Virus record (IMG/VR): IMGVR_UViG_3300031133_000383
Span: 186,635-250,634 of that record
Source: a virus
Lineage: Duplodnaviria > Heunggongvirae > Uroviricota > Caudoviricetes
Reading direction: 5' to 3' (one strand)
Length of the DNA: 64,000 nucleotides
Below the pieces are notes generated by a model. That model saw nothing but the letters and a program-made list of their open reading frames with translations, did not search any database and was not told where the DNA came from. The translations under genes and the position numbers were made by a program. Of this stretch, positions 16,513 to 57,675 are shown in pieces (the stretch's first letter is position 1; every line of letters begins with the position of its first letter).

Positions 16513-18384
16513 ATGAAACTTACCGAATTTCCATACCCAACTACTGAACCAGAATTTGTCGAATTGCTGACAGATCTCAATGACTGTTATCGAAAACAGC
16601 TTTCAATGTCACCAGTGTTTGGTCTTTTTCCCATTCTTGATGAAGAATATGATGCTTTGGTTGAAGACTTCCGTTCTAAGTTTCCAGAGTCAGCATGGTT
16701 GTCGGAAATTGAAATGGAAGAAGTTGGTGAAAACTATATCATCCATTCAGCACCAATGCTTTCAACTGAGAAAGCTTATTCTGTTGATGATTTGGCTCGT
16801 TGGGCTAAGAAAGTAGAAGACGCCGCAAAAAACCTTCATGTTGAATCAGTGTTCAAAGTAACATGCAAACTTGATGGTTTTGCGGGTGATCACGAATTTG
16901 GCAAATTATCTACTCGGGGTGATGGTGTTAAAGGTAATGATATTACTCATATTTTTGCATCCGGTGTCCTTCATATTGATGGAGTCGATGGACGTGGTGA
17001 AATTGTAGTATCCAAAAGTTATTTTGAAAGCAACTTGAAAGATATCTTTGCCCATCCTCGCAACATGATTGCCAGTGTTGTTTCATCTGATGATATTAAA
17101 GCAGAAACCAAGCAAGTACTTGCTGATGGGGCCGTTCATTTTGTACCTTATTCAACTCTGCCAACCTATGTGGGAACAGCCGATGATATTTTGAAAAATC
17201 TTGAAAAAATCACTACTGATTTGCGAAACAGTGTTGACTATTTGATTGATGGCTTTGTCATTGAATCAACCGTTGCTGAAATCAAAGATTATATGGGCTA
17301 CAATAACCATCACTACAAATGGCAAATCGCTTTCAAAGAACGTGGCGAAAAAGCTCAATCTCCCGTTATTGATATCAAACTTCAAGTCGGACGGACTGGC
17401 ACTGTGACGCCTGTACTGAGCATTCAACCTGTACTCCTTTCTGGTGCATCCATCAGCAGTGTTACGGCTCATCATATGAACAATATTCGCCAAAGTAAAA
17501 TTGGTATTGGTTCTGTTATTGAGATTATTCGCAGTGGTGAAGTGATTCCTAAAATTGAAAGGGTTATTACACAAGCTGAATATGAAATGCCTACTCAATG
17601 CCCTTGCTGTTCAACTGAGTTGCAGTGGGATAGTCATTTCTTGTATTGCCCAAACTCTGCAGGCTGTTCTGAACAAATCAAGCAAACTTTGCTTCATTTC
17701 TTTTCAACTCTCGATAATAATGATGGTTTTGGTGGTAAAACAATCAGTAAATTGGTTGATAGTCAATTCGATACATTGGAAAAAATCTATGCAATGAATG
17801 AGCAAGATTTCTTGATGGCCGGTTTTGGTCCGGGTGAAAGTGTCAATTTGGTAAAAGCCCTAGAAGCAAGTCGTACTACCAAGATTGAAGATTGGAGATT
17901 TCTTGCTGCTTTTGGCATTGCCGATTTGGGTAAAGGAGATTCCAAAAAATTGCTTCAAAACTTTACGTTGGATGCTCTGCATGAAGTAACCGCTGTTAAA
18001 TTGAGCAGTATCAAAGGGTATGGTAAAATCAAAAGTCTGACCATTACAGCAGGTATTGAGAAATACAAGTCTTTGATTGAAACCCTGCGGCCTTTCTTTA
18101 ATCTAGAATTATCTTCAAAAGTTATTATTGATAATGAAAGTCCTTTTTCAGGAAAAAATGTTGTTGTAACAGGAACAATGAAAAAGTTTTCTCGCAAAGA
18201 AATTGAAGCGTTCTTTACTTCAAAGGGAGCTAAAGTACAAAGCAAAGTTAGCAAAACAACCAATTACCTAGTGTATGGCGAAAGTGCTGGTTCGAAGTTT
18301 GATGACGCACAGGCATTAAGGGAAAAAGGAAATCCCATTGAAATTTTGACAGAAGATGAGTTTGTTAATCAGTTTGAAATTTAA
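16513..18384 (+). CDS. ligA: NAD-dependent DNA ligase
   Basis: Adenylation motif TCKLDGFA. Four-Cys zinc finger CPCCSTEL..YCPNSAGC. HhH region. C-terminal BRCT-like GKNVVVTGTMKKFSRKEIEAFFTSKGAKVQSKVSKTTNYLVYGESAGSKFDDA. GGAG RBS and TGGTATAAT promoter. Confidence 0.9.
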   Translation: MKLTEFPYPTTEPEFVELLTDLNDCYRKQLSMSPVFGLFPILDEEYDALVEDFRSKFPESAWLSEIEMEEVGENYIIHSAPMLSTEKAYSVDDLARWAKKVEDAAKNLHVESVFKVTCKLDGFAGDHEFGKLSTRGDGVKGNDITHIFASGVLHIDGVDGRGEIVVSKSYFESNLKDIFAHPRNMIASVVSSDDIKAETKQVLADGAVHFVPYSTLPTYVGTADDILKNLEKITTDLRNSVDYLIDGFVIESTVAEIKDYMGYNNHHYKWQIAFKERGEKAQSPVIDIKLQVGRTGTVTPVLSIQPVLLSGASISSVTAHHMNNIRQSKIGIGSVIEIIRSGEVIPKIERVITQAEYEMPTQCPCCSTELQWDSHFLYCPNSAGCSEQIKQTLLHFFSTLDNNDGFGGKTISKLVDSQFDTLEKIYAMNEQDFLMAGFGPGESVNLVKALEASRTTKIEDWRFLAAFGIADLGKGDSKKLLQNFTLDALHEVTAVKLSSIKGYGKIKSLTITAGIEKYKSLIETLRPFFNLELSSKVIIDNESPFSGKNVVVTGTMKKFSRKEIEAFFTSKGAKVQSKVSKTTNYLVYGESAGSKFDDAQALREKGNPIEILTEDEFVNQFEI

Positions 18385-18387
18385 ATA

Positions 18388-18410
18388 AAGCCACCTACGG
18401 GTGGTTTTCT
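18388..18410 (+). terminator. Intrinsic terminator after ligA
   Basis: AAGCCACC-TACG-GGTGGTTT followed by TCT. Confidence 0.7.
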
Positions 18411-18468
18411 CATTGCTTTAGAGAATAAATTTTGCTATAATTTCATAATATTTTGGAATTCCATAACT

Positions 18469-19332
18469 ATGGTAGATATAAAAGTAGAACATATTCAAGA
18501 GATCTTGCATAATTTAACTGAGTTATTATCAAGTGTTACCCCAATTACACATTTCAATATTGATACCAAAACACATTTCAATATCAATAACGAGAAAAAT
18601 TATAAAGGATCTTTATACAATGGCCAAGAACGTCTTTTCAATGTTACTATTGCAAATAAGATCGACATTTTTCCTTGCTTGAAAAAAGGCAATCGTTCAT
18701 TGTTTGCTAATAAAATTTCTCAACAGCTATGTACTTTATTTAATTTTGACGCTCCCGATGTTAACCATCTTATCTCTATTATCAAAAATAATATGGAGAT
18801 TTTTCAAAACAAGGGTTATTGGTGTTCAAAAAAAATGAGTCATTCTGATATAAACTATGTTGATGTATGGGAATCTATTAAATACTCTAATCCTCCCTAT
18901 GTCAAATTTAAAAGTCAGACAATATGTAGCAGCTTTTTATCTTCAACATTAAAAGTAAATAGACTACAATCTGTACAAGTTGATATAGCTTTATTAATTA
19001 TGCCAGATAAGCTTTTATCAATAAAACACTTTATAACGGCCAAGATACCTTTTGGTAATAATTGGTATAGCTGGTATTTATTCGAACCTCACCAGCCAGA
19101 TATTTTTTATTACCTCAGAGATATCAATGTGTCATTGAAGTATGAAGATATTTTAAAGGTTTCAACGAAAATATATAGACAAGACTTGGCAGAACACATG
19201 AAACAGGTTACGTACTCACGTATGGTGCCTATTATAAAAAAACTATCGGGAATGAAACAAGAAGATGCTAGAAATTTATCAAATGAAGATAAAGATAGAT
19301 TTTTAACGCTTCAGCATATGCAATCTATTTAA
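18469..19332 (+). CDS. Hypothetical protein, C-terminal-tail paralog family
   Basis: Promoter TTTTGCTATAAT at about 18431-18442. C-terminus is ...LSNEDKDRFLTLQHMQSI. Confidence 0.7.
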   Translation: MVDIKVEHIQEILHNLTELLSSVTPITHFNIDTKTHFNINNEKNYKGSLYNGQERLFNVTIANKIDIFPCLKKGNRSLFANKISQQLCTLFNFDAPDVNHLISIIKNNMEIFQNKGYWCSKKMSHSDINYVDVWESIKYSNPPYVKFKSQTICSSFLSSTLKVNRLQSVQVDIALLIMPDKLLSIKHFITAKIPFGNNWYSWYLFEPHQPDIFYYLRDINVSLKYEDILKVSTKIYRQDLAEHMKQVTYSRMVPIIKKLSGMKQEDARNLSNEDKDRFLTLQHMQSI

Positions 19333-19348
19333 AATTAGGAATATAATC

Positions 19349-19924: not shown

Positions 19925-19984
19925 TAGCTATTATATTTTTTTTATGCTATAATCTAGCTTTCTAATTAAAGGATTTTTTCTATT

Positions 19985-22203: not shown

Positions 22204-23364
22204 TTATATTTTCTTGATTATTTTTTGATTGTTTTTATTTAATACATATTCCATCATTCCAGATTCAGCATATTTTTTACTTTCATTTTCGCCTACAACA
22301 ATAATATCAGGAATTCCTTTATTTTTCCAATTTCTTATTTTTTTTCCTAAAGATTCAGAACTTTCATCTAGCTTACATGATTTTTTATCAAATTTTGAAT
22401 GAAGTAGCTTTGCGTAGTCGGATGATTTTTCAGAAACGGGTATGATTACTGATTTTATTGGATGCAAAAAATCTGGTATATCTTTCCCAAAAGATTCCAA
22501 CAAAATACCAATCATTCTTTCTAGAGATCCAAGAACAGCATGATGCAATATAATAGGACGTTGCATTTTATTATCAGAATCAACATATTCAAGTCCAAAT
22601 CTTTCTGGTAATACATAGTCCAACTGTATAACACCCAATTGCCAAGAACGACCTAGTTTATCTTCCACCTGAAGCTCTAGTTTTGGACCATAAAAAGCCC
22701 CCTCTCCCGGCAATTCTTGAAAATCAAGGTTGTTCATGGCACAAGCTTCACGCAAGGCGGCTTCAGCCTTATCCCAAAGACTATCTTCACCAAACCTTTT
22801 TTCTGGTCTGAGAGCAATCGCATATTTTATTTTTTTGAATCCTAGTTCTTCATAGGCTTTCTTGCTCATATTGATATATTGATTAACTGAATTAATGAGA
22901 TTTTCTGGATTAACAAACACATGACTGTCATCCTGACAAAATTGTCGCTGTCTGAACAATACCTGCAAAGCTCCTGATGCTTCATTACGATACACTTCAC
23001 CAAATTCAAAAATGGGTAAAGGTAATTCTTTATAACTACGTTTTTCGGATTGATAAATTAAAATGTGATTTGGACAACTCATAGGACGCAGTGCATAATT
23101 ACTAGCTTCTGATGAATTCAAGAAAAACATGTTTTCTTTATATTTTTCCATATGGCCTGATTGTTCAAATAAATTAGCTACCACAATTGAAGGACTTTTA
23201 ACTTCAAGATAACCATTATCTTCATGATGTTTTCTAATAAAAGATTTTAGATTTTCATAAAGCTTTAATCCTTCTGGTTTCCAATAAACAACACCTGCAC
23301 TTTCACTTAACATGAAAAGATTCATTTCATTTGCCACTTGCATATATCTTTTTTCTTCATTCAT
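22204..23364 (-). CDS. thrS: Threonyl-tRNA synthetase, catalytic plus anticodon-binding domains only (no TGS or editing N-terminus)
   Basis: Class II motifs RPMSCPNHILIYQSEKRSYKELPLPIFEFGEVYRNEASGALQVLFRQRQFCQDDSHVF resemble E. coli ThrRS LKPMNCPGHVQIF...RVRGFTQDDAHIF. ATG 23364 lies 8 nt after AGGAG. The track start at 23469 reads through the attenuator hairpin. Confidence 0.85.
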   Translation of the reverse strand: MNEEKRYMQVANEMNLFMLSESAGVVYWKPEGLKLYENLKSFIRKHHEDNGYLEVKSPSIVVANLFEQSGHMEKYKENMFFLNSSEASNYALRPMSCPNHILIYQSEKRSYKELPLPIFEFGEVYRNEASGALQVLFRQRQFCQDDSHVFVNPENLINSVNQYINMSKKAYEELGFKKIKYAIALRPEKRFGEDSLWDKAEAALREACAMNNLDFQELPGEGAFYGPKLELQVEDKLGRSWQLGVIQLDYVLPERFGLEYVDSDNKMQRPIILHHAVLGSLERMIGILLESFGKDIPDFLHPIKSVIIPVSEKSSDYAKLLHSKFDKKSCKLDESSESLGKKIRNWKNKGIPDIIVVGENESKKYAESGMMEYVLNKNNQKIIKKI

Positions 23365-23411
23365 TTTATTTCTCCTAGATAATTGATTATATTTTATTAA
23401 AATTAAGGCAT

Positions 23412-23437
23412 AAAAAAACCCAGCATTTAGCTGGGTT
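23412..23437 (-). terminator. Attenuator terminator of the thrS leader
   Basis: Minus-strand RNA AACCCAGC-UAAAU-GCUGGGUU followed by U-run (7 consecutive U in total), 47 nt upstream of the thrS ATG. Confidence 0.75.
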
Positions 23438-23459
23438 CTTGGTGTGCAGGTATCAATTA

Positions 23460-23534
23460 TTAACGACAATACCTCACCAGCCCAGCTTCGATCTGAGTTG
23501 TTGTGGTAGTTGTTGTATTCTTGACTATGTGCAT
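23460..23534 (-). CDS. thrS leader peptide MHIVKNTTTTTTTQIEAGLVRYCR (24 codons, 7 consecutive Thr codons)
   Basis: ATG 23534 lies 8 nt after AAGGA. Thr codons ACA ACA ACU ACC ACA ACA ACU map to 23516-23496. Tandem stops UAA UAA. The last codons form the left arm of the antiterminator. Confidence 0.75.
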   Translation of the reverse strand: MHIVKNTTTTTTTQIEAGLVRYCR

Positions 23535-23553: not shown

Positions 23554-23582
23554 ATTTTAATTTGAATTCTAAAATAAGTCAA
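23554..23582 (-). promoter_or_regulatory. Putative sigma70 promoter of the thrS leader
   Basis: Minus strand: TTGACT (rc 23577-23582), 17-nt spacer, TAAAAT (rc 23554-23559). This predicts a very short 5' UTR, so the TSS is uncertain. Confidence 0.5.
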
Positions 23583-28188: not shown

Positions 28189-28217
28189 TTGATTGTTTGA
28201 AAAATATCTGATACTAT
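28189..28217 (+). promoter_or_regulatory. Putative promoter of the tRNA cluster
   Basis: TTGATT (28189-28194), 17-nt spacer, TACTAT (28212-28217), about 30 nt upstream of the first tRNA. Confidence 0.5.
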
Positions 28218-28247
28218 AGCTTTATGAAATAAATGATGTCAAAATAT

Positions 28248-28326
28248 CGGAGTGTAGGTTAGCCCGGCTTATACCGCCTGCTTTGGGAGCAGGATGTCGC
28301 AGGTTCGAATCCTGCCACTCCGACCA
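28248..28326 (+). tRNA. tRNA-Pro (anticodon UGG), CCA encoded
   Basis: Acceptor CGGAGTG/CACTCCG. Anticodon arm CCTGC-TTTGGGA-GCAGG. T-arm GCAGG-TTCGAAT-CCTGC. Ends in ACCA. The D-arm is atypical (3 bp, long loop). Confidence 0.8.
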
Positions 28327-28339: not shown

Positions 28340-28417
28340 TGACAGGTAGCTCAGTGGGGAGAGCGGCTCCAAATTTTCGGGAGACGGTCGGGGGTTCAAA
28401 TCCTTCCTTGTCAACCA
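28340..28417 (+). tRNA. tRNA with atypical 9-nt anticodon loop (AAAUUUUCG); isotype undetermined (Lys-UUU or Glu-UUC reading possible)
   Basis: Acceptor TGACAGG/CTTGTCA. D-arm GCTC-AGTGGGGA-GAGC. T-arm GGGGG-TTCAAAT-CCTTC. ACCA encoded. The anticodon stem pairs only as CTCC/GGAG, which leaves 9 loop nucleotides. Confidence 0.6.
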
Positions 28418-28426
28418 TCTTTATAT

Positions 28427-28514
28427 GGAAAAGTGGCAGAGCGGTTGAATGCAACGGTCTTGAAAACCGTCGGGTGTAAAAGCCTCGTGAGTTCGAATCT
28501 CACCTTTTCCGCCA
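28427..28514 (+). tRNA. tRNA-Ser (anticodon UGA), long variable arm, CCA encoded
   Basis: Acceptor GGAAAAG/CTTTTCC. Anticodon arm ACGGT-CTTGAAA-ACCGT. Variable arm present. T-arm GTGAG-TTCGAAT-CTCAC. Ends in GCCA. Confidence 0.88.
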
Positions 28515-28516: not shown

Positions 28517-28630
28517 TTCGAAACAACATGGTGAATGGTAGTAGCCAATTAGGTGCAGCGGGGATCGTGCCCCCAAACTAGCTTGGTTCGAATCCAGCAG
28601 TGCATGGTGCAAAACCCAATATGTTTCGAA
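28517..28630 (+). other. tRNA-like element: canonical T-arm but no cloverleaf, enclosed by a 9-bp inverted repeat
   Basis: GCT(T)GG-TTCGAAT-CCAGC T-arm at 28581-28598. GGGG-ATCGTG-CCCC hairpin at 28560-28573. GTGCA/TGCAT pairing. Outer stem TTCGAAACA (28517-28525) / TGTTTCGAA (28622-28630). No acceptor stem or anticodon could be assigned. Confidence 0.35.
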
Positions 28631-31573: not shown

Positions 31574-32473
31574 GTGGGTAATTTTATTTTAACGGTTGCT
31601 TTTTTCGTCATAATTGGTTTGTTAGCTTGGTCCTGTATTGTCATCACTCGAAATAAACATGTTTCCATTATTGAAACATTTGGTAAGTATTCCAACACCA
31701 AAGAAGCAGGTCTTTCTTTTAAACTTCCATGGCCTATTCAGCATGTAGTGAAATTGGTTCCATTGAATATTCAACAAATAAGCACTACCCTAGAACTTAA
31801 AACCAATGACGATCTTTTTATTCGTTATCCAATCAATGTGCAGTTCAAAGTAGTCGATGCAGAAAAGGCCACCTATGAGCTTGATTCGCCTGAGCAACAG
31901 ATTCTAAGTTATATCAGTAACCTTGTTCGTTCAGAAGTAGGTAAAAAAACATTTCTGGAATTATATAATGTCCGTGATGAAATTCAAGATGTTATTGAAG
32001 AAGTACTGTCAGAAAAAATGTCCAGTTTTGGTTTCAAGATTGTTGCTGTTCTGGTAGATGAACCTATTCCAACAGAAGAAGTTCAAAATTCTTATAATGC
32101 TGTAACCGCATCGGTTCGTGAAAAGGAAGCGGCTAAAAACCGTGCAGAAGCTACTCGAATCACCATTGTAGCAGAAGCACAAGCACAAAAAGAGTCTAAA
32201 AAGCTTCAAGGTGAAGGTATTGCTGATCAACGTTTGGCTATCAGTCAAGGTTTCAAACAGTCCATTGAAGATGTTTCGACTTCTCTAGGCATTTCAAATG
32301 AACTTGCACTTGGCATGATTCTTCAATTGAATAAGTTTGATACACTGCGTGATGTTGCCAATGGTAAAGGCACACTTGTTGTCGCAGATGGTAGTGCTGG
32401 TTCTTCTTTATCTGAAATGACCAGTTTGATTTCAAGTATTAAAGCAGTTGAACTGCAAGCAAAACATATTTGA
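31574..32473 (+). CDS. SPFH/band-7 (stomatin/prohibitin-like) membrane protein
   Basis: GTG lies 7 nt after AAGGAG. N-terminal TM segment FILTVAFFVIIGLLAWSCIVI, then a SPFH-like core (VSIIETFGKY...GLSFKLPWPIQHV...) and an Ala/Glu-rich coiled coil (REKEAAKNRAEATRITIVAEAQAQKESKKLQGEG). Confidence 0.75.
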   Translation: MGNFILTVAFFVIIGLLAWSCIVITRNKHVSIIETFGKYSNTKEAGLSFKLPWPIQHVVKLVPLNIQQISTTLELKTNDDLFIRYPINVQFKVVDAEKATYELDSPEQQILSYISNLVRSEVGKKTFLELYNVRDEIQDVIEEVLSEKMSSFGFKIVAVLVDEPIPTEEVQNSYNAVTASVREKEAAKNRAEATRITIVAEAQAQKESKKLQGEGIADQRLAISQGFKQSIEDVSTSLGISNELALGMILQLNKFDTLRDVANGKGTLVVADGSAGSSLSEMTSLISSIKAVELQAKHI

Positions 32474-35918: not shown

Positions 35919-36047
35919 CTGTAACAACGTTTACTTTTCTTTATAATTTTATTATTTAAATAATTATTTCGAAATTAATGGTAAACGTTTTGACATTTTG
36001 TTTGTTGTTGGTATTATAATATTAATATAATAACAATAATGATATAT

Positions 36048-37322
36048 ATGAAAAAGTTTAAATTTTTACCATTGATATTGATTATACATACAGTAAGTTA
36101 TGCTGACTACACTGTTATCTATCCACTTACAAATGCCTCTATAACTATATCACAAAAACCGCCTAGTTATACTGATTGGGTTTCTGTCGGCAGCCCCTAT
36201 AATTGTGCATCCGCAAGTCCTATGGAAAATACAATTAATGAAGGTATTTCATATACCAAAAATTTTACTAATTGTGACCAAAACCAAGAAAGAAAAAAGA
36301 CGATAGGGTCAGTTGTCACTAATGAACAGCGTACCGTTTCTGGTATCAATTATCAAACTCAAAGTGTAGGTACAAAAAAATATATCCCAACCTATACTGA
36401 TTGGGTAAATGTGGATAATGCTTATAACTGTGCTTCTGCGACTCCTATGGAAAACACTGTCAATGAAGGCGTTGCTTATACAAAAACATTTAGTGATTGC
36501 AGTCAAAATCAAGAAAGAACAAAGACACTAAACTCCGTGGTTACCATAGAACAACGTACTGTTTCTGGCATCACTTATCAATCTCAAAGTGTAGGTACAA
36601 AAAAATCTGTTCCTACCTATACTGATTGGACCAACGTTGGTGGAGCTTATAATTGTAATCAAAATCCTAAAGAAGACACTATTGATGAAGGAGTGAGTTA
36701 CACAAAAACTTTTAGTGAATGTAGTCAAGATCAGGAAAGAACAAAAACATTAGATTCCACAGTTTCTGTAGAAAAACGCACTATTCCAGCACCTAGTTAT
36801 CAAACCCAAAGTGTTGGAACAAAAGTAGCTGTTGCAACTTATACAGAATGGGCAAAATCAGGAACTCCATACAATTGCAAAAATATTGGACCTATGGAAG
36901 ATACATTTAATGAAGGAACAGTGTTTACAAAAAATTACAATGATTGCAGTCAGGATTACACTCGAACTAAGACATATAAAGGTGTCAACACAACTGAGAG
37001 TCAAACGTTACAGGGATTTAATTATTCTGTTCAAAGCGTAGGTACACGATCAGTAACAGAATGTGCTCCTTATGCGACTAACAATAATTATCGTTGGATT
37101 GACGTTGCCAAACAACAGCTTGGTACACCTAATTATAAATATGAATTATGGTGGAATGGCAAAGCATTGGCTTTCTTAACAGATAAACCTGTTACCACTG
37201 CAGCGGATAAAACTTTTACCACAGGTGGTTATGTGTATAGTCGTGGAGAATATAAAGAAAGTACAGTAAGAAATAGCGATTATAAATACTTCTATTATCA
37301 AGTGTGTAGAAAACCTGTCTAA
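36048..37322 (+). CDS. Secreted Cys-repeat protein, 4 repeats plus conserved C-terminal domain (tandem paralog 1 of 4)
   Basis: Signal peptide MKKFKFLPLILIIHTVSYA|DY. Four ~74-aa repeats of YT[DE]W..G..YNC....P.E.T..EG..YTK.F..CSQ.QERTKT. Start chosen by promoter-to-ATG spacing homology with the paralogs; ATG 36039 is an alternative. Confidence 0.75.
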   Translation: MKKFKFLPLILIIHTVSYADYTVIYPLTNASITISQKPPSYTDWVSVGSPYNCASASPMENTINEGISYTKNFTNCDQNQERKKTIGSVVTNEQRTVSGINYQTQSVGTKKYIPTYTDWVNVDNAYNCASATPMENTVNEGVAYTKTFSDCSQNQERTKTLNSVVTIEQRTVSGITYQSQSVGTKKSVPTYTDWTNVGGAYNCNQNPKEDTIDEGVSYTKTFSECSQDQERTKTLDSTVSVEKRTIPAPSYQTQSVGTKVAVATYTEWAKSGTPYNCKNIGPMEDTFNEGTVFTKNYNDCSQDYTRTKTYKGVNTTESQTLQGFNYSVQSVGTRSVTECAPYATNNNYRWIDVAKQQLGTPNYKYELWWNGKALAFLTDKPVTTAADKTFTTGGYVYSRGEYKESTVRNSDYKYFYYQVCRKPV

Positions 37323-37325
37323 CTT

Positions 37326-37358
37326 AAAAAACACTCTTTTTCGAAAGGGTGTTTTTTT
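37326..37358 (+). terminator. Intrinsic terminator after paralog 1
   Basis: ACACTCTTT-TTCG-AAAGGGTGT followed by a T-run. Confidence 0.75.
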
Positions 37359-37439
37359 ATAAACGTCTATTATTCAATAAAAATTTTGACATTATAATTA
37401 TTTTTGATATTATAATGTTAATACAACAATAAATATATT

Positions 37440-38273
37440 ATGACACATTTCAAGCTTTTACCTCTTTTGCTTTTTGTACAAACCATTAGTTATGCTGACT
37501 ACACTGTTATTTATCCATTAGCCGATTCTTCAATTTCAATAAAGCATAAAATTGAACCATCATTGCCGACCTATACAGAATGGGCATCCGTAGGCGAACC
37601 CTATAATTGTACGTATTCAACACCAAAAGAGGATACAATTGAAGAAGATACCGTATATACGAAAACTTTTAGTAATTGTACTCAAAAACAATCAAGAACA
37701 AAAACACTAGATTCGAATGTTACTACAGAGGAACGTACTATTTCTGGCGTACAATACCAAGCTCAAAGTATAGGTACAAAATTGGCTGTCGCTACTTACA
37801 CAGAATGGGCTATATCTGGTAAACCTTATGATTGTAAATCAGCTAGCCCTATGGAAGATGCCTTTACGGAAGGAACTGTCTTCACAAAACACTATACTGA
37901 TTGTAGCCAGAATTTAACTAGGATTAAAACCTACAAAGGTGTACAAACAACTGAAAGTAAAGTGGCGACCGGTTATGGATATGATGCTGAAAGCGTTGGA
38001 ACACGATCTGTGACTGAATGTATGACTCGATCTACTGATTATTATTGGATCGATGCAGCTAAACAACCGCTTGGATCACCCAACTATAAATATAATATAA
38101 AATGGAACAAGTCAACTTTGGCCAGTTATACATCAAAAGTCAATAACAACCCAGCAGATACAAGTTTTACCTCAGACGGTTATATTTATAGTCGTGGAAC
38201 CTACAGATCAACAACTTTACGATTTGAGGATTATAAATACTTTTATTATGACATATGCAGAAAACCTATTTAA
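37440..38273 (+). CDS. Secreted Cys-repeat protein, 2 repeats plus C-terminal domain (tandem paralog 2)
   Basis: Own TTGACA / TATAAT promoter at about 37386-37420. Signal peptide MTHFKLLPLLLFVQTISYA|DY. C-terminus is ...YKYFYYDICRKPI. Confidence 0.75.
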   Translation: MTHFKLLPLLLFVQTISYADYTVIYPLADSSISIKHKIEPSLPTYTEWASVGEPYNCTYSTPKEDTIEEDTVYTKTFSNCTQKQSRTKTLDSNVTTEERTISGVQYQAQSIGTKLAVATYTEWAISGKPYDCKSASPMEDAFTEGTVFTKHYTDCSQNLTRIKTYKGVQTTESKVATGYGYDAESVGTRSVTECMTRSTDYYWIDAAKQPLGSPNYKYNIKWNKSTLASYTSKVNNNPADTSFTSDGYIYSRGTYRSTTLRFEDYKYFYYDICRKPI

Positions 38274-38398
38274 CTTATAATAAAAAGCACATTGTGGGAT
38301 ATGCTTTTTTATTAATTATTATTTCTATTATTCAATAATTTATTTTGACATCATATTAATTTTTGATATTATAATATTAATACAATAATAAATATATT

Positions 38399-39232
38399 AT
38401 GACACATTTCAAGCTTTTACCTCTTTTGCTTTTTGTACAAACCATTAGTTATGCTGACTACACTGTTATTTATCCATTAACCGATTCTTCAATTTTAATA
38501 AAGAATAAAATTGTACCATCAGTGCCTACCTACACAGAATGGGCATCCGTAGGCGAACCTTATAATTGTGCATCATCAAATCCACAAGAATATAATGTGG
38601 ATGAAGGTGTAACCTATACTAAGACTTTTAATGATTGCATACAAAAACAAGAAAGAACGAAAACATTAGACAAAGAGATTACCACTGAATCTCGTACTAT
38701 TTCTATTTCGCAATATAAAGTTCAAAGTATTGGAACAAAGGTAGCTATACCTAGTTATACCGAATGGACTAATTCTGGTAGTGCTTATAACTGTCAATCC
38801 GTTAGCCCTATGGAAGATACTATTTCAAAAGGAAAAGAATATACAAAAAATTATACCAACTGCAGTATTAATCAAACTAGAACAAAAACACTTAATAATG
38901 TTAAAAATACTGAGACACGAGTTGCTGATGGGTATTCATACTCTATTCAAAGTGTTGGAACAAGAAATGATGAAGAATGTTTAAAATTTTCAAATTCTAG
39001 TCGTTGGGTAGATTATGCAAAAACACCACTTACTGCACCTAATTACAAATATCAAGTAGTATGGAATGGTAATGTATATGCTTCTTTTTCAAATTTACCA
39101 GAAAAAACCAATGTAGACATGAGTTTTACTTCAGGAATCTATGTATACACTCGTGGAACCTATCAATATTCGCAAAAAGTTGATAAGGATTATCAATATT
39201 TTTATTATGAATTATGTAGAAAGCCTATTTAA
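38399..39232 (+). CDS. Secreted Cys-repeat protein (tandem paralog 3)
   Basis: The first 60 nt of the CDS and the promoter are nearly identical to paralog 2; the remainder is diverged. C-terminus is ...YQYFYYELCRKPI. Confidence 0.75.
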   Translation: MTHFKLLPLLLFVQTISYADYTVIYPLTDSSILIKNKIVPSVPTYTEWASVGEPYNCASSNPQEYNVDEGVTYTKTFNDCIQKQERTKTLDKEITTESRTISISQYKVQSIGTKVAIPSYTEWTNSGSAYNCQSVSPMEDTISKGKEYTKNYTNCSINQTRTKTLNNVKNTETRVADGYSYSIQSVGTRNDEECLKFSNSSRWVDYAKTPLTAPNYKYQVVWNGNVYASFSNLPEKTNVDMSFTSGIYVYTRGTYQYSQKVDKDYQYFYYELCRKPI

Positions 39233-39340
39233 TTTTTATCAATAAATAATAATAAATGTTAAGTATTATATTAAATATTTTGATATTGTAGAACTTGGTG
39301 GTATTATAATAATAGAACAATAATTATATATTTAACCTCT

Positions 39341-40198
39341 ATGAATTTTTTTAAATTACTACCTTTGATTTTTGCAATACAATCAATCAGCTATGCTGAT
39401 TATACAGTCATTTATCCTTTGGATAGTTATCTTCTTAGTATAAAAAATAAAGTTGTAACCAATCCTGATGACGGCTCTGAACAATCTGTCTATACAGAAT
39501 GGTCATCCAATACAGATCCATACGATTGTGCAAAAATTTCGCCACTTTCAGAAACTATTGACGAAGGGGTATCCTTTACTAAAACATTTTCCAACTGTCT
39601 GCAAGACCAAACACGAACAAAAACTTTAAATTCTAAAATATCTATTGAGCATCGGACTGTTCAGGGTGTAGGTTATACAACTCAAAGTATAGGAACAAAG
39701 AAAGCCGTGGCTACTTATACAGAGTGGGTCAGATCAGGTGTACCTTATAAATGTGAGTTTATTGGGCCGATGGAAGATACTGTTGTGGAAGGATCTGCAT
39801 ATACCAAGACTTATAAAAATTGTAGTGCGGATTTTATCAGAACTAAAACACTCAGTGGTGTTGAAACAACTGAAAGTAAGGTCGTCACTGGTTATGAATA
39901 TTCTGTTCAAAGTATTGGAACTCTATCAGGAACAGAATGCTTGGTTTATAACGATACCACTAGTCAGAGTCGTTGGATTGATGCTGCTAAAACAGAGATG
40001 TCGGCTCCCAATTATAAATATGAGCTAACATGGAAAGGAAAATATATAGCAAACTTTACATCATCTACTGTCAATGTGGTTGATAACAGTTTTACAAAGG
40101 ATGGTTATATTTATAGTCGTGGAAAGTTTTTTTCTCGCTATGACCGTAATTTTGGCTATTATTATTTTGCCTATCAAGTGTGTAGAAAACCTGTTTGA
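39341..40198 (+). CDS. Secreted Cys-repeat protein (tandem paralog 4)
   Basis: Signal peptide MNFFKLLPLIFAIQSISYA|DY. Two repeats. C-terminus is ...YYYFAYQVCRKPV. Confidence 0.75.
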   Translation: MNFFKLLPLIFAIQSISYADYTVIYPLDSYLLSIKNKVVTNPDDGSEQSVYTEWSSNTDPYDCAKISPLSETIDEGVSFTKTFSNCLQDQTRTKTLNSKISIEHRTVQGVGYTTQSIGTKKAVATYTEWVRSGVPYKCEFIGPMEDTVVEGSAYTKTYKNCSADFIRTKTLSGVETTESKVVTGYEYSVQSIGTLSGTECLVYNDTTSQSRWIDAAKTEMSAPNYKYELTWKGKYIANFTSSTVNVVDNSFTKDGYIYSRGKFFSRYDRNFGYYYFAYQVCRKPV

Positions 40199-44096: not shown

Positions 44097-46200
<2,104 letters not shown>

Positions 46201-50523: not shown

Positions 50524-50607
50524 CATATTTGGTAGTAGTTTTTTCTTTACAGATTGTTTGTTTTTTGTTACAATCGCATTATTAAATCAATATCACTAGG
50601 AGTTGTT

Positions 50608-51498
50608 ATGTCAAAAGAAATTCGCTTTAAAACTGAAATTGCCTCACTCGATAAATCTCTTATGAAGCAAGTTTCTGAGAAGCGTTCTCGCAAAGAATTT
50701 AAAGATCTGAAGTCTAAGTCAAATGAAATTGTTTATGTTATCCGGTTCAAATCAAGTGAAAAAGATCTTGCGTTTGAAAAATTGGAGCGTGACGTTGATA
50801 TGACTATTCTTAATAGTTCTCGTGGTGAGACAGTTTATATGGTTATTCATAGTCCCGGTGGTAGTGTAACTGCTTACGCAAACGCAGCACAACAAATTCA
50901 GCGTTTGAAGGCTCACGGACTCAAAGTGATTGCCTATGTTGATGAAGTTGCTGCTTCGGGTGGCTATATGATGGCGTCTGTTTGCGATGAAATTGTAGCA
51001 CAACCTTTTGCTTTTGTAGGGTCCATTGGTGTTGTTTCTCAAGTGCCAATTGTTGAAGAAGCCCTTAATAAAATTGGTGTTGATTACAAAGTATATACAG
51101 CAGGAAAGCTAAAGCGTACAGTTGTGCCAACTAAAACGCCTACTGTAGAAGAAGAAATCAATTATAAAGAAAAATTGAATGATATTCATACTGCCTTTAA
51201 AAACCATGTTCTGAAATATCGTCCTTATGTCAATGCAGATAAATTGATGGAAGGTGACTTCTATATGGCTCAAGATGTAGTGGATGCCCGATTGGTAGAC
51301 TCCATTGGCGATAGTCGTAGTGCCATTCTTGCAGCTTTCAAAAAAGGGACCCATTTGTATGAAGTCAAAACAGAAGCAAAAAAAACAGGTGGCGGTCTTG
51401 TCAGTTTTTTTGGTGTAGACTCAGTTCTGGAAATGGCGATTGGTAAGTTTTTCGACCGTATTGTTTCAATGACACATCCTAACGAAAACATCCGTTAA
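50608..51498 (+). CDS. S49-family serine peptidase (SppA/SohB-like)
   Basis: ATG lies 6 nt after AGGAG. ClpP/crotonase-like core with IHSPGGSV and VAASGGYMMASVCDEIVAQP, typical of peptidase S49. Confidence 0.65.
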   Translation: MSKEIRFKTEIASLDKSLMKQVSEKRSRKEFKDLKSKSNEIVYVIRFKSSEKDLAFEKLERDVDMTILNSSRGETVYMVIHSPGGSVTAYANAAQQIQRLKAHGLKVIAYVDEVAASGGYMMASVCDEIVAQPFAFVGSIGVVSQVPIVEEALNKIGVDYKVYTAGKLKRTVVPTKTPTVEEEINYKEKLNDIHTAFKNHVLKYRPYVNADKLMEGDFYMAQDVVDARLVDSIGDSRSAILAAFKKGTHLYEVKTEAKKTGGGLVSFFGVDSVLEMAIGKFFDRIVSMTHPNENIR

Positions 51499-51614: not shown

Positions 51615-53480
51615 ATGTTAACAATAAAAGATATAAATATTTTAAAAAATTGCTATGCCACTGAATTAAACAGTTACGAAGATTTTTCACTCAGTCATTA
51701 TTTTGAAAATAAATCCAGTAAAATACGCAAATATGATGCAAGGTTTGACAAATATTTCTCAGGTTTGGACAATCAGTATAATAATAATACAGCATCCTCT
51801 TATATCGTAGATCAATATATGATGAACTTGGAAAAGATCAATAATTACGATTTTAATGATATGAATTCTATTAATGATTTTGTTTCTCAAACTTATTGGC
51901 TGCAGCAATTGATGCAAAATTTTAATAATTTGTGTGCTGGTTCTATTTGTGACGATTTATCAGCTAACTTTGAAGGTTGGCAAAAAATTGCAAAATTAAA
52001 TGAAAAAGATATTTCTATTCAGCTTACTCAATTTCAGCAACTGATTGCAAATATTATTTCAGATGATGTTTTTACGCCTATCATAAGCAAGATTGAAAAA
52101 CTTCTTGATAACATGAGAGACATTAAAAATGATATAAAATATTTTGATGGAAAAGATAATTCATCTTATATGGAAAGTTGTTTTAATTTAAAGAGAAACT
52201 TATCTTTTTTTAAAAAATACTCCAAACAAGATAATATTCTTGATAACTTAATTGCTGAAAGCAAAATCTTTGACCATATAGAATCTTATAAAAAGATAAG
52301 ATTGAGTATAGTAGAAACTTTGCAACAAGACAATTATCAATTTAGCTATTCAGATTCTGATTCTTTTGTTAGATCAATAAATAATTCTAATAATGTAAAA
52401 ACCATACTTCTAGAGCAAACAGAAAGTAGAGTGATTGACGAAATAAAATTTAATCAGGAATATTACGGTATTAATAATCTATATTTATTTAAGGATAGCA
52501 GTATTGCTTTTAAAAATAAACGCAATGAATGGAAGTCTGTTGAATCCATGGAAGAAAGACATTTCCTCATAGAAAGTTTGTTGTGCAGAGAGATGGCTTA
52601 TAAATTGAAAAAAAATCCTACCATTGCTAAGTTATTTATGAAAAAGTTAAAGGAAAATCCACTTGATTGTCAAAAAGCTTTTACCACTGCAGATACTTAT
52701 ATTGCTAATGAAGCTATATTAAAATCTAAAGATTATAATTTATTAGAAGAAATCAGGGATCATATGTTTGAAGATTTAGATGATTCAATGAATTCATTTA
52801 TTCGCAAACATAATATTGAGCACTATGGATTCAGTATAGCCAGCAAGAAATATAAAGAACTTTACAATGAAAAATCATTTCAAATAATAGGGATGCTTTA
52901 TGATTTAAAAGTGCCATCCACTGAGCTACAAGAGAGCTTGGGTAGAAAACTTGCTTCATTCAAAAATACTAATGATTTTAATAAAGCATTAAGATCGCTT
53001 TACATGATTCACAGCAGCTTCAATAATGAATCAGTTGCGGCTAAGGCTCGTATCAATAATGCCGAAATTATAAAAAATAAAGATAATATTTTAATTATTA
53101 AAATAGACAATTTTTTACAAAGTGCAGCAATTGGAAGTAGTGCTTGGTGTATATCAAGGAATGAAGTCTATTTTAAAAGTTATACAAAAGAAGCTCAGCA
53201 GTATTTTGTATACGATTTTAACAAAGATCCTACTGATAATGATTCTATCGTTGGTGTGACATTGAGATCTGATGGTAGTCACAGTGCTGCTCATTTCAAA
53301 AATGACGATGTATTGAACAATAATGACGTGTTTAAAAGTTATCAATTAGATATTTTGAGACATGATTTAAAAAGTTATAAAAATCTAGATAAAGAGTTAA
53401 AGATACAAATTGATAATTCCACAAAAATTATAAAAAAAAGTTTATTTCAAGAGTTGAAATCAAAATTCTTGAATCTTTGA
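51615..53480 (+). CDS. Large hypothetical protein
   Basis: 621 aa, Asn/Lys-rich. No motif recognised with confidence. Confidence 0.65.
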   Translation: MLTIKDINILKNCYATELNSYEDFSLSHYFENKSSKIRKYDARFDKYFSGLDNQYNNNTASSYIVDQYMMNLEKINNYDFNDMNSINDFVSQTYWLQQLMQNFNNLCAGSICDDLSANFEGWQKIAKLNEKDISIQLTQFQQLIANIISDDVFTPIISKIEKLLDNMRDIKNDIKYFDGKDNSSYMESCFNLKRNLSFFKKYSKQDNILDNLIAESKIFDHIESYKKIRLSIVETLQQDNYQFSYSDSDSFVRSINNSNNVKTILLEQTESRVIDEIKFNQEYYGINNLYLFKDSSIAFKNKRNEWKSVESMEERHFLIESLLCREMAYKLKKNPTIAKLFMKKLKENPLDCQKAFTTADTYIANEAILKSKDYNLLEEIRDHMFEDLDDSMNSFIRKHNIEHYGFSIASKKYKELYNEKSFQIIGMLYDLKVPSTELQESLGRKLASFKNTNDFNKALRSLYMIHSSFNNESVAAKARINNAEIIKNKDNILIIKIDNFLQSAAIGSSAWCISRNEVYFKSYTKEAQQYFVYDFNKDPTDNDSIVGVTLRSDGSHSAAHFKNDDVLNNNDVFKSYQLDILRHDLKSYKNLDKELKIQIDNSTKIIKKSLFQELKSKFLNL

Positions 53481-53532
53481 TATTCTTTTAAAAAATCTAA
53501 TTGATATTAATTCAATCTTAAAAAAACACTCT

Positions 53533-54597: not shown

Positions 54598-54743
54598 GTA
54601 TGTTTCAATAGTTGTTTCTTTTATTATATCATATTACTCTTTATTTTAAATGATTATCAATTATTTTATCTTGCTAATCTTTTAATTTGGTATTTTTGAT
54701 ATAAAATAAAGGATAGGTTAAATCATTGATAAGGATAAATCAT

Positions 54744-55133: not shown

Positions 55134-55191
55134 ATCTTTGTTTTAATTATTTCATTTTATGTTACAATACTAAAAAACATTGGATTTCATC

Positions 55192-55770: not shown

Positions 55771-55829
55771 ATTAAATCTTGACTATTTTTGTCGATTTGA
55801 TATTATCTGCTTAAATTGGAGATAATCAT

Positions 55830-56219: not shown

Positions 56220-56222
56220 TTG

Positions 56223-56251
56223 TTGACCGAAAGTGCATGATTTGCTATACT
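56223..56251 (+). promoter_or_regulatory. Putative tyrS leader promoter
   Basis: TTGACC (56223-56228), 17-nt spacer containing TGc, TATACT (56246-56251). Confidence 0.6.
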
Positions 56252-56284
56252 TTCATAAAATCAGACGCATTAAGGAATACCTAC

Positions 56285-56332
56285 ATGAAAGCTACATTTC
56301 ACTTCCAGAAGTCATTTACTGTTCGATATTGA
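56285..56332 (+). CDS. tyrS upstream ORF MKATFHFQKSFTVRY (15 codons; last sense codon is Tyr UAU)
   Basis: ATG lies 8 nt after AAGGA. The stop UGA (56330-56332) is 2 nt upstream of the anti-SD segment. Confidence 0.45.
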   Translation: MKATFHFQKSFTVRY

Positions 56333-56334
56333 AC

Positions 56335-56410
56335 TTTCTCCATACTATTGCTTTTTATAGGCAATACATCTTTTTCTGAAAAATCCAACTTCAAAACTTC
56401 TATGGAGAAA
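56335..56410 (+). promoter_or_regulatory. SD-sequestering long-range helix in the tyrS leader
   Basis: TTTCTCCATA (56335-56344) is the perfect reverse complement of TATGGAGAAA (56401-56410), which contains the tyrS GGAG. The helix encloses hairpin TATTGC-N9-GCAATA (56346-56366), followed by CATCTTTTTCT. Confidence 0.55.
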
Positions 56411-56415
56411 TCGTA

Positions 56416-57675
56416 ATGCATATTTTTATTAAAGAACTAAAAGACCGTAATCTTATTTCACAAATGACTGATGAAAATAAAATTTCAATTTTGTTAGACA
56501 AGGGTGTTTCGTTATACTGTGGTTTTGATCCAACGGCTGATTCATTACATGTGGGTAGTTTATTACCACTAATCACCATGCTTCGTTTTAAGCGGGCTGG
56601 TCATCGTGTATTCCCCTTGATTGGTGGAGCAACAGGTATGATTGGTGATCCTAGCTTCAAAGCTCAGGAACGTAGTCTTAATGATGTTGATACTGTAAAT
56701 CGGTTTAAATCAGGTATTGCTGCCCAAATTAAAGCAATTCTTGGGGATGTAGAACTGGTTGACAATCATGATTGGACAGCAAACCTTTCAGTTATTGATT
56801 TTTTGCGAGAAGTAGGGAAACATTTCTCAGTGAACAGTATGTTGAATAAAGAATCTGTACGCAGTCGCTTGGATCGTGATGATCAGGGTATTTCTTTTAC
56901 TGAATTCTCATACCAGTTACTGCAGTCCATGGATTTTCATCATTTGTTTAAATCAAAAGGGTGCCAACTGCAGTTGGGCGGTAGCGATCAGTGGGGAAAC
57001 ATTACGGCAGGCATTGATTTGATCCATCGTAAGGAAGGCAATGATGCTGTGGCAACTGGTTTGACTATGCCATTGTTGGTAAAATCGGACGGTACTAAAT
57101 TTGGTAAAAGTGAAAGTGGTGCAGTATGGCTAGCTCCTGATAAAACTTCGGCTTTTGACTTCTTCCAGTTTTGGTTAAAAGTGGCCGATGCTGATATTCC
57201 AAAGTTTTTCAAGATGCTTTCCTTTAGAAGTATTGAAGATATTGATTGTATCCTCGAAGCTGATAAGAATCGTGTAAAACCAGTAGCTCAACAATTGCTT
57301 GCCGAAGAATTAACTGCTTTGATTCATGGTCAAGACGCATTGGATGCAGTTCTTCGAAATAATCAGGCTTTGTTTGACAACAACTTTGACAGCTTACATG
57401 AAAACGATTTTCACATGTTGGTAAAAAACGGTATGAAGTTGATGAAAACACAGGAAAATAACTTATTAGAACTCCTAGTCGCTTCTGGTTTGTCTAAATC
57501 AAAACGTCAAGGTAGAGAGTTTATTCAAAATGGAGCAGTACAGATTAATGGACGAAAAGTCAAAATTGATGAAAATGACATGAACTCTGCCATTATTGAA
57601 GACTTTAAATTTGGTCAGTTTGCTGTACTGCAACGAGGAAAACGAGAATTTATTCTCATTGAAAAGCCCGCTTGA
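56416..57675 (+). CDS. tyrS: Tyrosyl-tRNA synthetase (bacterial type, with C-terminal S4-like domain)
   Basis: HIGH motif (DSLHVGSLLPL). KMSKS motif (KFGKS). GGSDQWGNI. C-terminal RQGREFIQNGAVQINGRKV. Confidence 0.92.
   Translation: MHIFIKELKDRNLISQMTDENKISILLDKGVSLYCGFDPTADSLHVGSLLPLITMLRFKRAGHRVFPLIGGATGMIGDPSFKAQERSLNDVDTVNRFKSGIAAQIKAILGDVELVDNHDWTANLSVIDFLREVGKHFSVNSMLNKESVRSRLDRDDQGISFTEFSYQLLQSMDFHHLFKSKGCQLQLGGSDQWGNITAGIDLIHRKEGNDAVATGLTMPLLVKSDGTKFGKSESGAVWLAPDKTSAFDFFQFWLKVADADIPKFFKMLSFRSIEDIDCILEADKNRVKPVAQQLLAEELTALIHGQDALDAVLRNNQALFDNNFDSLHENDFHMLVKNGMKLMKTQENNLLELLVASGLSKSKRQGREFIQNGAVQINGRKVKIDENDMNSAIIEDFKFGQFAVLQRGKREFILIEKPA

Follow-up and report, generated by a model that had tools for sequence, protein, structure and literature searches.

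Putative leader-peptide control of thrS and tyrS on a giant, mostly orphan element of a bacterium

Introduction

Why does a giant genetic element bring along its own aminoacyl-tRNA synthetases, and when does it want them? The question is raised by a 64,000-nucleotide (nt) stretch of the IMG/VR virus record IMGVR_UViG_3300031133_000383, referred to here as the window, in which the span under study (positions 16513-57675, ~41 kb) carries the synthetase genes thrS, serS and tyrS, three tRNA genes and the DNA ligase gene ligA. The window lies at ~186,631-250,630 of a contig of 322,998 bp (ENA ERZ27247402 k141_253576), and proteins identical to those of the window are also encoded on a contig of 604,313 bp. 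As many as 15 synthetases and 67 tRNAs have been recorded in huge phages (Al-Shayeb et al. 2020, PMC7162821). Why large phages carry such genes is debated, the candidate reasons being codon compensation, autonomy when the host collapses and evasion of defences that target tRNAs.

A preliminary description of this DNA had named ligA, thrS, serS, tyrS and the three tRNAs, and we found all of them where it had placed them or close by. All three synthetases are of bacterial type, with bacterial enzymes as their best matches among solved structures; ThrRS belongs to class II and TyrRS to class I. Three such genes in 41 kb far exceed the density of a cellular genome, for which ~0.2-0.4 would be expected from about 20 genes per 2-5 Mb. 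The further claim that two of the three synthetase genes have translation-sensing leaders holds for thrS and tyrS, in the form of leader-peptide open reading frames (ORFs).

The thrS leader

The thrS gene is encoded on the minus strand and is preceded by the following elements:

23554-23582, minus strand: leader promoter TTGACT-17-TAAAAT, 10 of 12 consensus positions
23460-23534, minus strand: leader ORF of 24 codons encoding MHIVKNTTTTTTTQIEAGLVRYCR before its stop, with the Shine-Dalgarno sequence AAAGGA upstream and seven consecutive Thr codons at 23516-23496
23477-23487, minus strand: antiterminator half AGCTGGGCTGG, within the leader ORF, pairing with CCCAGCT of the terminator 5' arm
23412-23438, minus strand: intrinsic terminator GAACCCAGC-taaat-GCTGGGTTT with a T-run, ~47 nt upstream of the thrS ATG
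22204-23364, minus strand: thrS, encoding a ThrRS catalytic and anticodon-binding core of 386 amino acids (TIGR00418, 403.7 bits, cut-off 383.65)

The true start of thrS is the ATG at 23364, which has AGGAGA as its ribosome-binding site and is also the start in the public gene call (386 amino acids). The TTG at 23469, the start of the mechanically called ORF 22204-23469, was rejected; this ORF is too long, because positions 23365-23534, which it would cross, hold the leader and the terminator.

The sequence AGCTGGG at 23487-23481, inside the leader ORF, is the complement of the 5' arm of the terminator hairpin. This hairpin is GC-rich, comprises 9 bp (-15.4 kcal/mol) and is followed by U7. In the minimum-free-energy fold of the leader, the Thr-codon segment is paired with the GCUGGG segment and the terminator is formed (z = -3.2).

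An alignment of seven loci, the window and the relatives' loci L007, L009, L011, L100, L101 and L102, revealed that the same design is shared by all six relatives (ThrRS 68-84% identical), whose leaders hold 5-7 Thr codons each and are preceded by counterpart promoters. Across these loci, the terminators range from -12.5 to -16.1 kcal/mol and end in U7-9, and the antiterminator folds range from -15.8 to -24.1 kcal/mol. Each of the nine terminator pairs is 100% paired over the seven sequences, with compensatory changes in three, compared with at most 67% for slid controls. The GCUGGG:CCCAGC antiterminator duplex (-10 to -19 kcal/mol) can form at every one of the seven loci, and 89.8% of the antiterminator cells in the alignment are paired. 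The sole pair specific to the antiterminator, which joins a base of the leader ORF to the first base of the terminator loop, covaries as AU (three sequences), UA (two) and GC (one). At the level of sequence, the thrS leader is in all its parts a classical ribosome-mediated attenuator.

Two search results weigh against this assignment. A simple terminator scan did not flag the thrS hairpin, and our case for the terminator rests on folds and covariation instead. The Rfam family Thr_leader (RF00506) gave 16.3 bits in a search of 261 nt, far from its gathering threshold of 55 (E = 0.96).

Switching by the leader would proceed as follows. RNA polymerase would start at TTGACT/TAAAAT, and a ribosome would translate the 24-codon leader with its seven Thr codons. 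When Thr-tRNA(Thr) is plentiful, the ribosome would run through, leaving GCUGGG either masked or paired with the Thr-codon segment; the CCCAGC/GCUGGG hairpin and its U-run would form, and transcription would stop 47 nt before thrS. When Thr-tRNA(Thr) is scarce, the ribosome would stall at the run of Thr codons, the GCUGGG:CCCAGC antiterminator would form and the polymerase would enter thrS.

The enzyme behind this leader is short. Its match to TIGR00418 covers model positions 160-536 of 565, and it aligns to residues 244-601 of E. coli ThrRS (6vu9) with the zinc-site motifs CPxH, DDxH and LHxA kept. It lacks the TGS and editing (N2) domains, as the protein begins at the equivalent of E. coli residue 244, and no separate editing protein was seen. 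The shortness is clade-wide, the 120 best homologues all having 359-422 amino acids.

A separate observation concerns the region 23362-23435 (minus strand), which spans the thrS terminator, the spacer and the ribosome-binding site and gives a sub-threshold match to the Rfam motif freshwater-2 (28.4 bits, gathering threshold 49.9). This metagenome-defined motif might derive in part from terminator-plus-ribosome-binding-site regions of such elements.

The tyrS leader

The tyrS gene, on the plus strand, is likewise preceded by a promoter and a short leader ORF:

56223-56251, plus strand: leader promoter TTGACC-17-TATACT with an extended -10 (TG), 10 of 12 consensus positions
56285-56332, plus strand: leader ORF of 15 codons encoding MKATFHFQKSFTVRY before its stop, with CGA-UAU-UGA as its last codons at 56324-56332
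56335-56344, plus strand: anti-Shine-Dalgarno tract TTTCTCCATA right after the leader stop, complementary to the tyrS ribosome-binding site at 56401-56410
56346-56376, plus strand: weak AT-rich hairpin TATTGC...GCAATA followed by CTTTTTC, seen by folding; candidate terminator or structural spacer
56416-57675, plus strand: tyrS, encoding a bacterial-type TyrRS of 419 amino acids with an S4-like C-terminal domain (TIGR00234, 381 bits)

The encoded TyrRS has the Pfam domains tRNA-synt_1b, SYY_C-terminal and S4, and is ~50% identical to the TyrRSs of jumbo phages of Enterobacterales.

Leaders were compared at five loci, the window and the relatives' loci L012, L014, L015 and L016, with TyrRSs 55-100% identical. 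All four relatives have kept a short leader ORF of 15-18 codons that ends in RY or RYYS before the stop, namely MNASSTFHFQKSFTVRY (TyrRS identity 77%), MLKNKDTFHFQKSFTVRY (67%), MNIKSNHILNALNTSRY (64%) and MLRQTFHFDTGYKLRYYS (56%). In a five-way alignment of the intergenic regions, the only invariant blocks are the -35 TTGA and TCGATATT, which comprises the Arg codon CGA and the Tyr codon UAU. Between the window and L012, the segment TFHFQKSFTVRY has undergone four synonymous and no non-synonymous changes.

The region downstream of the leader is less uniform. In the window, the duplex between the anti-Shine-Dalgarno tract and the ribosome-binding site has -12.9 kcal/mol, a value equalled by 0.6% of shuffled sequences, and the equivalent duplex of L012 has -13.3 kcal/mol with one compensatory pair. 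Of the relatives, only L012 and L015 have hairpins at the position of the window's AT-rich hairpin. At all five loci, the leader stop is followed by a tract rich in C and poor in G. Searching the tyrS leader region against Rfam returned nothing.

On this comparison we consider the leader ORF of tyrS to be real and linked to tyrosine, with unmasking of the Shine-Dalgarno sequence, Rho-dependent termination and weak intrinsic termination as alternative outputs. A ribosome awaiting Tyr-tRNA(Tyr) at the UAU codon, or held at the stop codon, would cover the tract just downstream. In the window, the covered tract would be the anti-Shine-Dalgarno sequence that otherwise sequesters the ribosome-binding site of tyrS; in other relatives, the stalled ribosome may instead block Rho or a weak terminator.

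Several observations count against a sensor of charged tRNA(Tyr). The leader of the window holds a single Tyr codon. The anti-Shine-Dalgarno pairing is absent from three of the five loci (L014, L015 and L016), and no convincing structure follows the leader in L014 and L016. The terminator scan did not flag the hairpin of the window. Conservation of the peptide (TFHF...RY) could also reflect a role of the nascent peptide or of an RNA motif, not of the Tyr codon. The upstream ORF might accordingly belong to a nascent-peptide arrest or small-molecule sensor of the tnaC or speFL kind, accompany an RNA operator bound by TyrRS, or be a constitutive upstream ORF. Such a device would account for the TFHFQKSFTVRY peptide being the same in three relatives in spite of four synonymous changes and for the lack of a downstream structure common to the five loci, and the tract after the stop resembles a Rho-loading site in its composition. 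We regard this alternative as possible but doubtful. CGA-UAU at the end of the ORF is the only element of the ORF that is invariant at all five loci, three Tyr codons stand in the leader of the most diverged relative (RYYS), the controlled gene is tyrS itself, and the same lineage has cognate-codon leaders at thrS and before a Ser/Tyr tRNA operon described below.

In cultured Yersinia phage fHe-Yen9-03, whose TyrRS is 50% identical, tyrS begins 9 nt after groES and has no leader.

Class and extent of the leaders

The third synthetase gene of the span has no leader, only 48 nt separating it from the upstream ORF:

44106-45389, plus strand: serS, encoding a full-length bacterial-type SerRS of 427 amino acids (TIGR00414, 505 bits)

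T-box leaders were rejected as an explanation for thrS and tyrS, as the Rfam T-box model (RF00230) had no match at E<=5 in the whole window or at E<=10 in the leader regions. Leaders were also looked for before argS in L101 and before gltX/glnS in L011, and none was found. A wider scan of the window and its relatives for leader ORFs rich in cognate codons brought up only the thrS leaders and a leader with Ser and Tyr codons.

The latter lies ~9 kb past the end of the window on the same contig (L105 19231-20205, corresponding to window coordinates ~72,550-73,520). It consists, in this order, of a promoter, a leader ORF encoding MKTTLMTTSYYYSYYSH before its stop, alternative hairpins, a strong intrinsic terminator, a second promoter (TTGACA-17-TAGAAT) and five tRNA genes. 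The leader ORF holds five Tyr and three Ser codons, and the operon encodes Ser(CGA), Ser(GCU), two copies of Tyr(GUA) and Ser(UGA), and no other kinds of tRNA. It had been pointed out that the window has no tRNA-Thr and no tRNA-Tyr; this is true of the window, but the two tRNA-Tyr genes follow ~9 kb beyond it. An equivalent leader (ending in SSYYYSYYSH before the stop), terminator, promoter and Ser/Tyr tRNA cluster occur on a relative's contig of 1.04 Mb, which additionally has tRNA-Thr(UGU) and tRNA-Gly. The arrangement was noted at L105 and at L014 (16940-17675). Over the full length of the model, the leader region resembles the Rfam family His_leader at a sub-threshold score of 29.8 bits (gathering threshold 49).

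The Ser/Tyr leader may be a third cognate-codon leader, one that modulates a tRNA operon; because the second promoter intervenes, we only infer the link between leader and tRNA genes. Our literature search found no precedent for leader-peptide attenuation of a tRNA operon. If the Ser/Tyr leader gates this operon, it would be the first case in which leader-peptide attenuation controls tRNA genes.

Nature of the element

What kind of element carries these leaders? Its sigma-70 promoters (17-nt spacing), its Shine-Dalgarno sites, its intrinsic terminators and its attenuators, which would rely on coupling of transcription to translation, point to a bacterial host. The genes of the translation module had been described as lying among orphan genes, and this was borne out: about 9 of the 68 ORFs of at least 100 amino acids have a Pfam match, and for ~85% of the surrounding ORFs there is no match in either Pfam or PHROGs. 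A Pfam search of 20 further ORFs yielded one match (Band_7), a PHROGs search of another 20 yielded two, and the precomputed annotation of the public contig gives "-" for most neighbouring genes. The neighbourhoods examined on relatives' contigs of 1.04, 1.54 and 1.85 Mb likewise consist almost entirely of orphan ORFs. Taken as a whole, the data are best explained by a giant, mostly orphan element of a bacterium, most likely a very large phage, that bears a translation module with leader-controlled thrS and tyrS; we consider this explanation probable, with moderate confidence.

The density of translation genes had been called characteristic of very large phages. The contig of more than 200 kb and the translation genes themselves agree with this view, but virion genes were not found in the stretches read and the phage identity is unproven. 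Matches to phage families are few and comprise a protein of 778 amino acids, a polynucleotide kinase/phosphatase, the phrog_24943 protein and an S49 peptidase. The first of these (4883-7219, minus strand) matches phrog_33734 (E = 2e-153) as well as the bacterial MXAN_6230/SCO0854 RING-domain family. Hypothetical proteins of the jumbo Xanthomonas phages XacN1 (385 kb) and Xoo-sp13 (309 kb) share 45% identity with it, and this is the only clear link to cultured phages.

Several results weigh against a phage. The sequence read comprises ~84 kb of the 323-kb contig and ~150 kb from relatives (eight loci), and neither yielded a capsid, portal, terminase or tail gene. Relatives occur on contigs of 1.04, 1.33, 1.36, 1.54, 1.85, 1.86 and 1.92 Mb; the largest published phage genome has 735 kb, and one of 841 kb is described in a preprint. 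The S49 peptidase (50554-51498, plus strand) was not accepted as proof of a phage head protease, for it also matches NfeD1b_N. The ORF of 621 amino acids next to it (51615-53480, plus strand) was rejected as a major capsid protein: its predicted model, a confident one (pLDDT, the predicted local distance difference test score, of 82), consists almost wholly of helices, no PDB fold matched it at E<0.38, and in relatives the ORF is not beside the S49 peptidase. The 621-amino-acid protein is specific to the lineage, with 21 homologues that are all on large contigs.

A Band_7/SPFH protein is encoded 18 kb from the S49 peptidase (31574-32473, plus strand). NfeD and SPFH proteins are usual partners. 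Because of the NfeD1b_N match and the SPFH protein 18 kb off, the S49 peptidase may serve in membrane quality control and not as a prohead protease.

These results could also describe a bacterial chromid or a giant extrachromosomal element, plasmid-like or otherwise novel, whose translation module and attenuators would serve long-term residence and not a lytic take-over. Such an element would explain that virion genes are missing from every stretch read, that the ORF next to the S49 peptidase does not encode an HK97 capsid, that the relatives' contigs of 1.04-1.92 Mb are beyond any known phage, and that relatives carry cell-like genes. The genes found among the relatives' orphans are those for DnaK, ClpB, GatB, ArgRS, GluRS/GlnRS, RuvA, OmpA, OprD, SufE and an Na/H exchanger; apart from the two synthetase genes, all of these have a cell-like character. 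We nevertheless regard this alternative as unlikely, if not lightly dismissed. At most a quarter of any such genome has been read, so that virion genes may sit elsewhere; genes of phage families are present (the XacN1/Xoo-sp13 homologue, a T4-type polynucleotide kinase and the relatives' T4 Rnl1-type RNA ligases); and genes for plasmid replication, partition or conjugation were not seen.

It is very unlikely that the window is a piece of the chromosome of an unrecognised small-genome bacterium with the synthetases as its housekeeping copies. The relatives' contigs of 1.0-1.9 Mb, the bacterial gene-expression signals and the relatives' chaperone, membrane and repair genes would suit a cell. The ordinary housekeeping context of a cellular chromosome, which the preliminary description had named as what would refute its own reading, was, however, not seen, most ORFs being unmatched in Pfam and PHROGs, and it is this orphan fraction of ~85% that makes a cell so improbable. 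To our knowledge, no cellular genome has such a fraction. A ThrRS without an editing domain, the lack of a close relative among 185,579 GTDB species genomes and the absence of ribosomal or other core genes from ~230 kb sampled across the lineage also speak against a chromosome.

A bolder proposal can be made tentatively. The element may be a member of a lineage, not yet catalogued, of viruses or virus-like elements of bacteria. Genomes in this lineage would span 1-1.9 Mb, exceeding the largest known phage two- to threefold, and would bear a self-regulating translation module in which cognate-codon leader peptides gate thrS and tyrS, with the Ser/Tyr leader standing before the tRNA operon. We consider this possible, though rather less than probable.

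Origin of the synthetases

For ThrRS and for TyrRS alike, environmental contigs supplied more than 100 homologues of 55-85% identity; within the lineage relatives, TyrRS is 55-79% identical. The neighbourhoods of the homologues examined are alike in being rich in orphans and often have ligA, a phrog_24943 protein of 365 amino acids and an S49 peptidase nearby. A library clustered at 50% identity retains just a few representatives of the ThrRS clade, of 55-57% identity, and everything else in it is at most 45% identical. A metagenome scan with a TyrRS alignment, which relied on universal motifs, was swamped by ordinary bacterial TyrRSs and yielded just two useful relatives.

No close cellular relative was found, the best values being 42-45% for ThrRS and 42-56% for TyrRS. 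Among 50,697 phage records, the best matches were 42% for ThrRS (an uncultured phage of 636 kb), 50% for TyrRS, 51% for SerRS and 30% for LigA. Close relatives are absent from IMG/VR, from the INPHARED phage records and from GTDB. Between relatives, the synthetases, ligA and a few other genes are 56-84% identical, compared with 24-50% for the neighbouring orphans.

The homologues of 55-85% identity in a shared orphan context, the steep drop in identity outside the clade and the unusual conservation of the synthetases indicate that ThrRS and TyrRS are old, lineage-inherited genes under selection and not recent host captures. This conclusion covers ThrRS and TyrRS; SerRS had no close match in the phage records. 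That the synthetases and their leaders are recent, passive captures from a host chromosome without a role for the element, as the bacterial type of all three enzymes, their nearest solved structures and the classical attenuators on bacterial synthetase genes might suggest, has a very small probability, since ThrRS and TyrRS recur, each with a leader, in syntenic orphan contexts of relatives only 55-85% identical, ThrRS identity does not exceed 45% beyond the clade, no GTDB genome matched the pattern of the tyrS leader and the synthetases are among the most conserved genes of the lineage.

The tRNA cluster and codon usage

Three tRNA genes, all with an encoded CCA, are clustered in the span:

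28248-28326, plus strand: tRNA-Pro(UGG), called by ARAGORN (Rfam 61.8 bits)
28340-28417, plus strand: aberrant tRNA-Lys(UUU)-like gene with discriminator A, called Lys-TTT by ARAGORN (Rfam 43.1 bits, neighbours ~60)
28427-28514, plus strand: tRNA-Ser(UGA) with a long variable arm, called by ARAGORN (Rfam 59.9 bits)

The second of these is odd. Its acceptor, D and T arms are good, but its fold is no better than that of shuffled sequences (z 0.3), and the anticodon arm has a stem of 4 bp with flanking mismatches and a loop of 9 nt, AAAUUUUCG, without a purine at position 37. It thus departs from a canonical elongator tRNA, which has an anticodon stem of 5 bp and a 7-nt loop with U33 and purine 37. 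The orthologue in L007, also beside tRNA-Pro, has a normal cloverleaf with an anticodon stem of 6 bp, the 7-nt loop AUUUUGG and the anticodon UUU, and on the strength of this orthologue the odd tRNA of the window is evidently derived from tRNA-Lys(UUU). It may be a variant selected for escape from anticodon nucleases, or it may be a pseudogene in decay. Evasion of these nucleases by phage tRNAs through changes in the anticodon loop is known (van den Berg et al. 2023, PMC10264068; Azam et al. 2024, PMC11555353). Like them, the gene of the window is of the tRNA-Lys(UUU) type, has a non-canonical anticodon arm and belongs to an element with a polynucleotide kinase/phosphatase. Unlike the escape tRNAs, which carry point changes, it has a 9-nt loop without purine 37, so that decoding may be impossible, and the relative's orthologue is near-canonical.

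The polynucleotide kinase/phosphatase-like protein (HAD_PNKP, phrog_415/505) is encoded at 8077-9309 (plus strand). A search for a T4 Rnl1 homologue in the window found none. Relatives encode T4 Rnl1-type RNA ligases (L012 6591-7709, L014 8118-9344 and L102 1-1149), one of them fused to kinase and phosphoesterase domains. Together, the kinase/phosphatase and the Rnl1-type ligases would form a tRNA-repair toolkit within the lineage.

A fourth tRNA at 28520-28625, suggested by a GGTTCGAATCC motif, was rejected: neither ARAGORN nor Rfam called it, and its fold is worse than that of shuffled sequences. The region (plus strand) is a tRNA-like remnant after tRNA-Ser with the GGTTCGAATCC T-loop motif and a GGGG...CCCC hairpin, and L011 has a similar tRNA-like tail ending in GCCA after its own tRNA-Ser. 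Upstream of the cluster, a promoter (TTGACA-18-TATAGT, 11 of 12 consensus positions) at 28213-28242 on the minus strand is directed away from the tRNA genes and towards no obvious gene; the plus-strand promoter candidate for the cluster is weaker (8 of 12).

In the element's codon usage, AAA makes up 80% of the Lys codons, and Tyr accounts for 5.3% of all codons. Its preference for A/U-ending codons fits tRNAs with U34: tRNA-Pro(UGG), tRNA-Ser(UGA) and the Lys(UUU)-like gene would supply readers of the preferred codons.

Further genes of the span

Two further loci complete the description:

16513-18384, plus strand: ligA, encoding a divergent NAD-dependent DNA ligase of 623 amino acids (Pfam adenylation, OB, BRCT and HhH domains)
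36039-40198, plus strand: four tandem paralogous ORFs of 427, 277, 277 and 285 amino acids with internal repeats, 48-62% identical to one another

LigA scores 335 bits in NCBIfam, under the cut-off of 444, the whole protein lying below the NCBIfam equivalog cut-offs. An alignment with E. coli LigA (2owo) revealed that the KLDG adenylation motif and the four-Cys segment are retained. Among relatives, LigA is 69-75% identical. The four paralogues match no family, and the local AT skew is positive.

Significance

The net effect of the two synthetase leaders would be production of the element's own ThrRS and TyrRS as needed, when charged tRNA falls. Possible triggers would be host shut-off, a tRNA-targeting defence or the element's own heavy demand for A/U-ending codons. 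It had been argued that the element buffers translation against host shut-down; leaders that sense charged tRNA would fit buffering, but shut-down is one of several triggers, and tRNA-cleaving defence systems are an equally good candidate.

Synthetase and tRNA genes tell what an element carries; leaders tell when a gene is wanted. Those described here indicate that thrS and tyrS would be induced specifically at a shortage of the matching charged tRNA. They make the translation-buffering idea directly testable and give a handle on why such elements carry synthetases. Dense translation genes on huge elements were already known, as were leader-peptide attenuators; what appears to be new is their combination, in which leaders with cognate codons gate the thrS and tyrS carried by an element, and this in a lineage with a ThrRS that has no editing domain. 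The lineage-wide loss of this domain raises the question whether the element tolerates or exploits mischarging of Ser for Thr. The Ser/Tyr leader with its tRNA operon and the megabase contigs of the relatives are leads that could prove weightier than the original finding.

Comparison with known systems

With the huge phages of Al-Shayeb et al. (PMC7162821), the element shares a large, AT-rich genome with several synthetases and tRNAs distinct from the host versions, for which a role in redirecting or sustaining translation has been proposed. It differs from them in that its lineage is missing from the phage collections searched and that the relatives' contigs are two to three times the size of the largest reported phage. 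In the literature on phage synthetase genes we found no regulatory leaders described; thrS and tyrS of this element have them.

Classical attenuators precede the bacterial genes pheST, trpS and leuS, where the regulated gene is the cognate synthetase (PMC1262725). The thrS leader resembles thrL, pheM (pheST) and the trpS and leuS attenuators of Streptomyces in its promoter, Shine-Dalgarno sequence, cognate-codon ORF, mutually exclusive hairpins and U-run. Unlike these chromosomal attenuators, it resides on a giant mobile or viral element, and it has no sequence relationship to the Rfam Thr_leader. Known control of thrS is by translational autorepression in E. coli and by T-boxes in Firmicutes; here, thrS would be controlled by attenuation. 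T-box leaders of synthetase genes share the purpose, induction of a synthetase by uncharged tRNA, but no T-box or specifier structure is present here.

The tyrS leader is comparable to tnaC, speFL and ermCL in its short ORF, its conserved peptide and the critical codon beside the stop. Downstream of it follows either an anti-Shine-Dalgarno tract, as in the logic of ermC, or a C-rich tract, as in that of tna. It differs from these leaders in that there is no sequence similarity and that its signal is likely to be charged tRNA and not a drug or metabolite.

The ThrRS, finally, resembles forms without an editing domain that consist of core and anticodon-binding domain, namely the E. coli deltaN-ThrRS construct (1evk), yeast mitochondrial MST1 (3ugq) and crenarchaeal ThrRS-cat (3a31). 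The difference is that in the present case the truncated form is natural and is conserved throughout an entire clade of element-borne enzymes.

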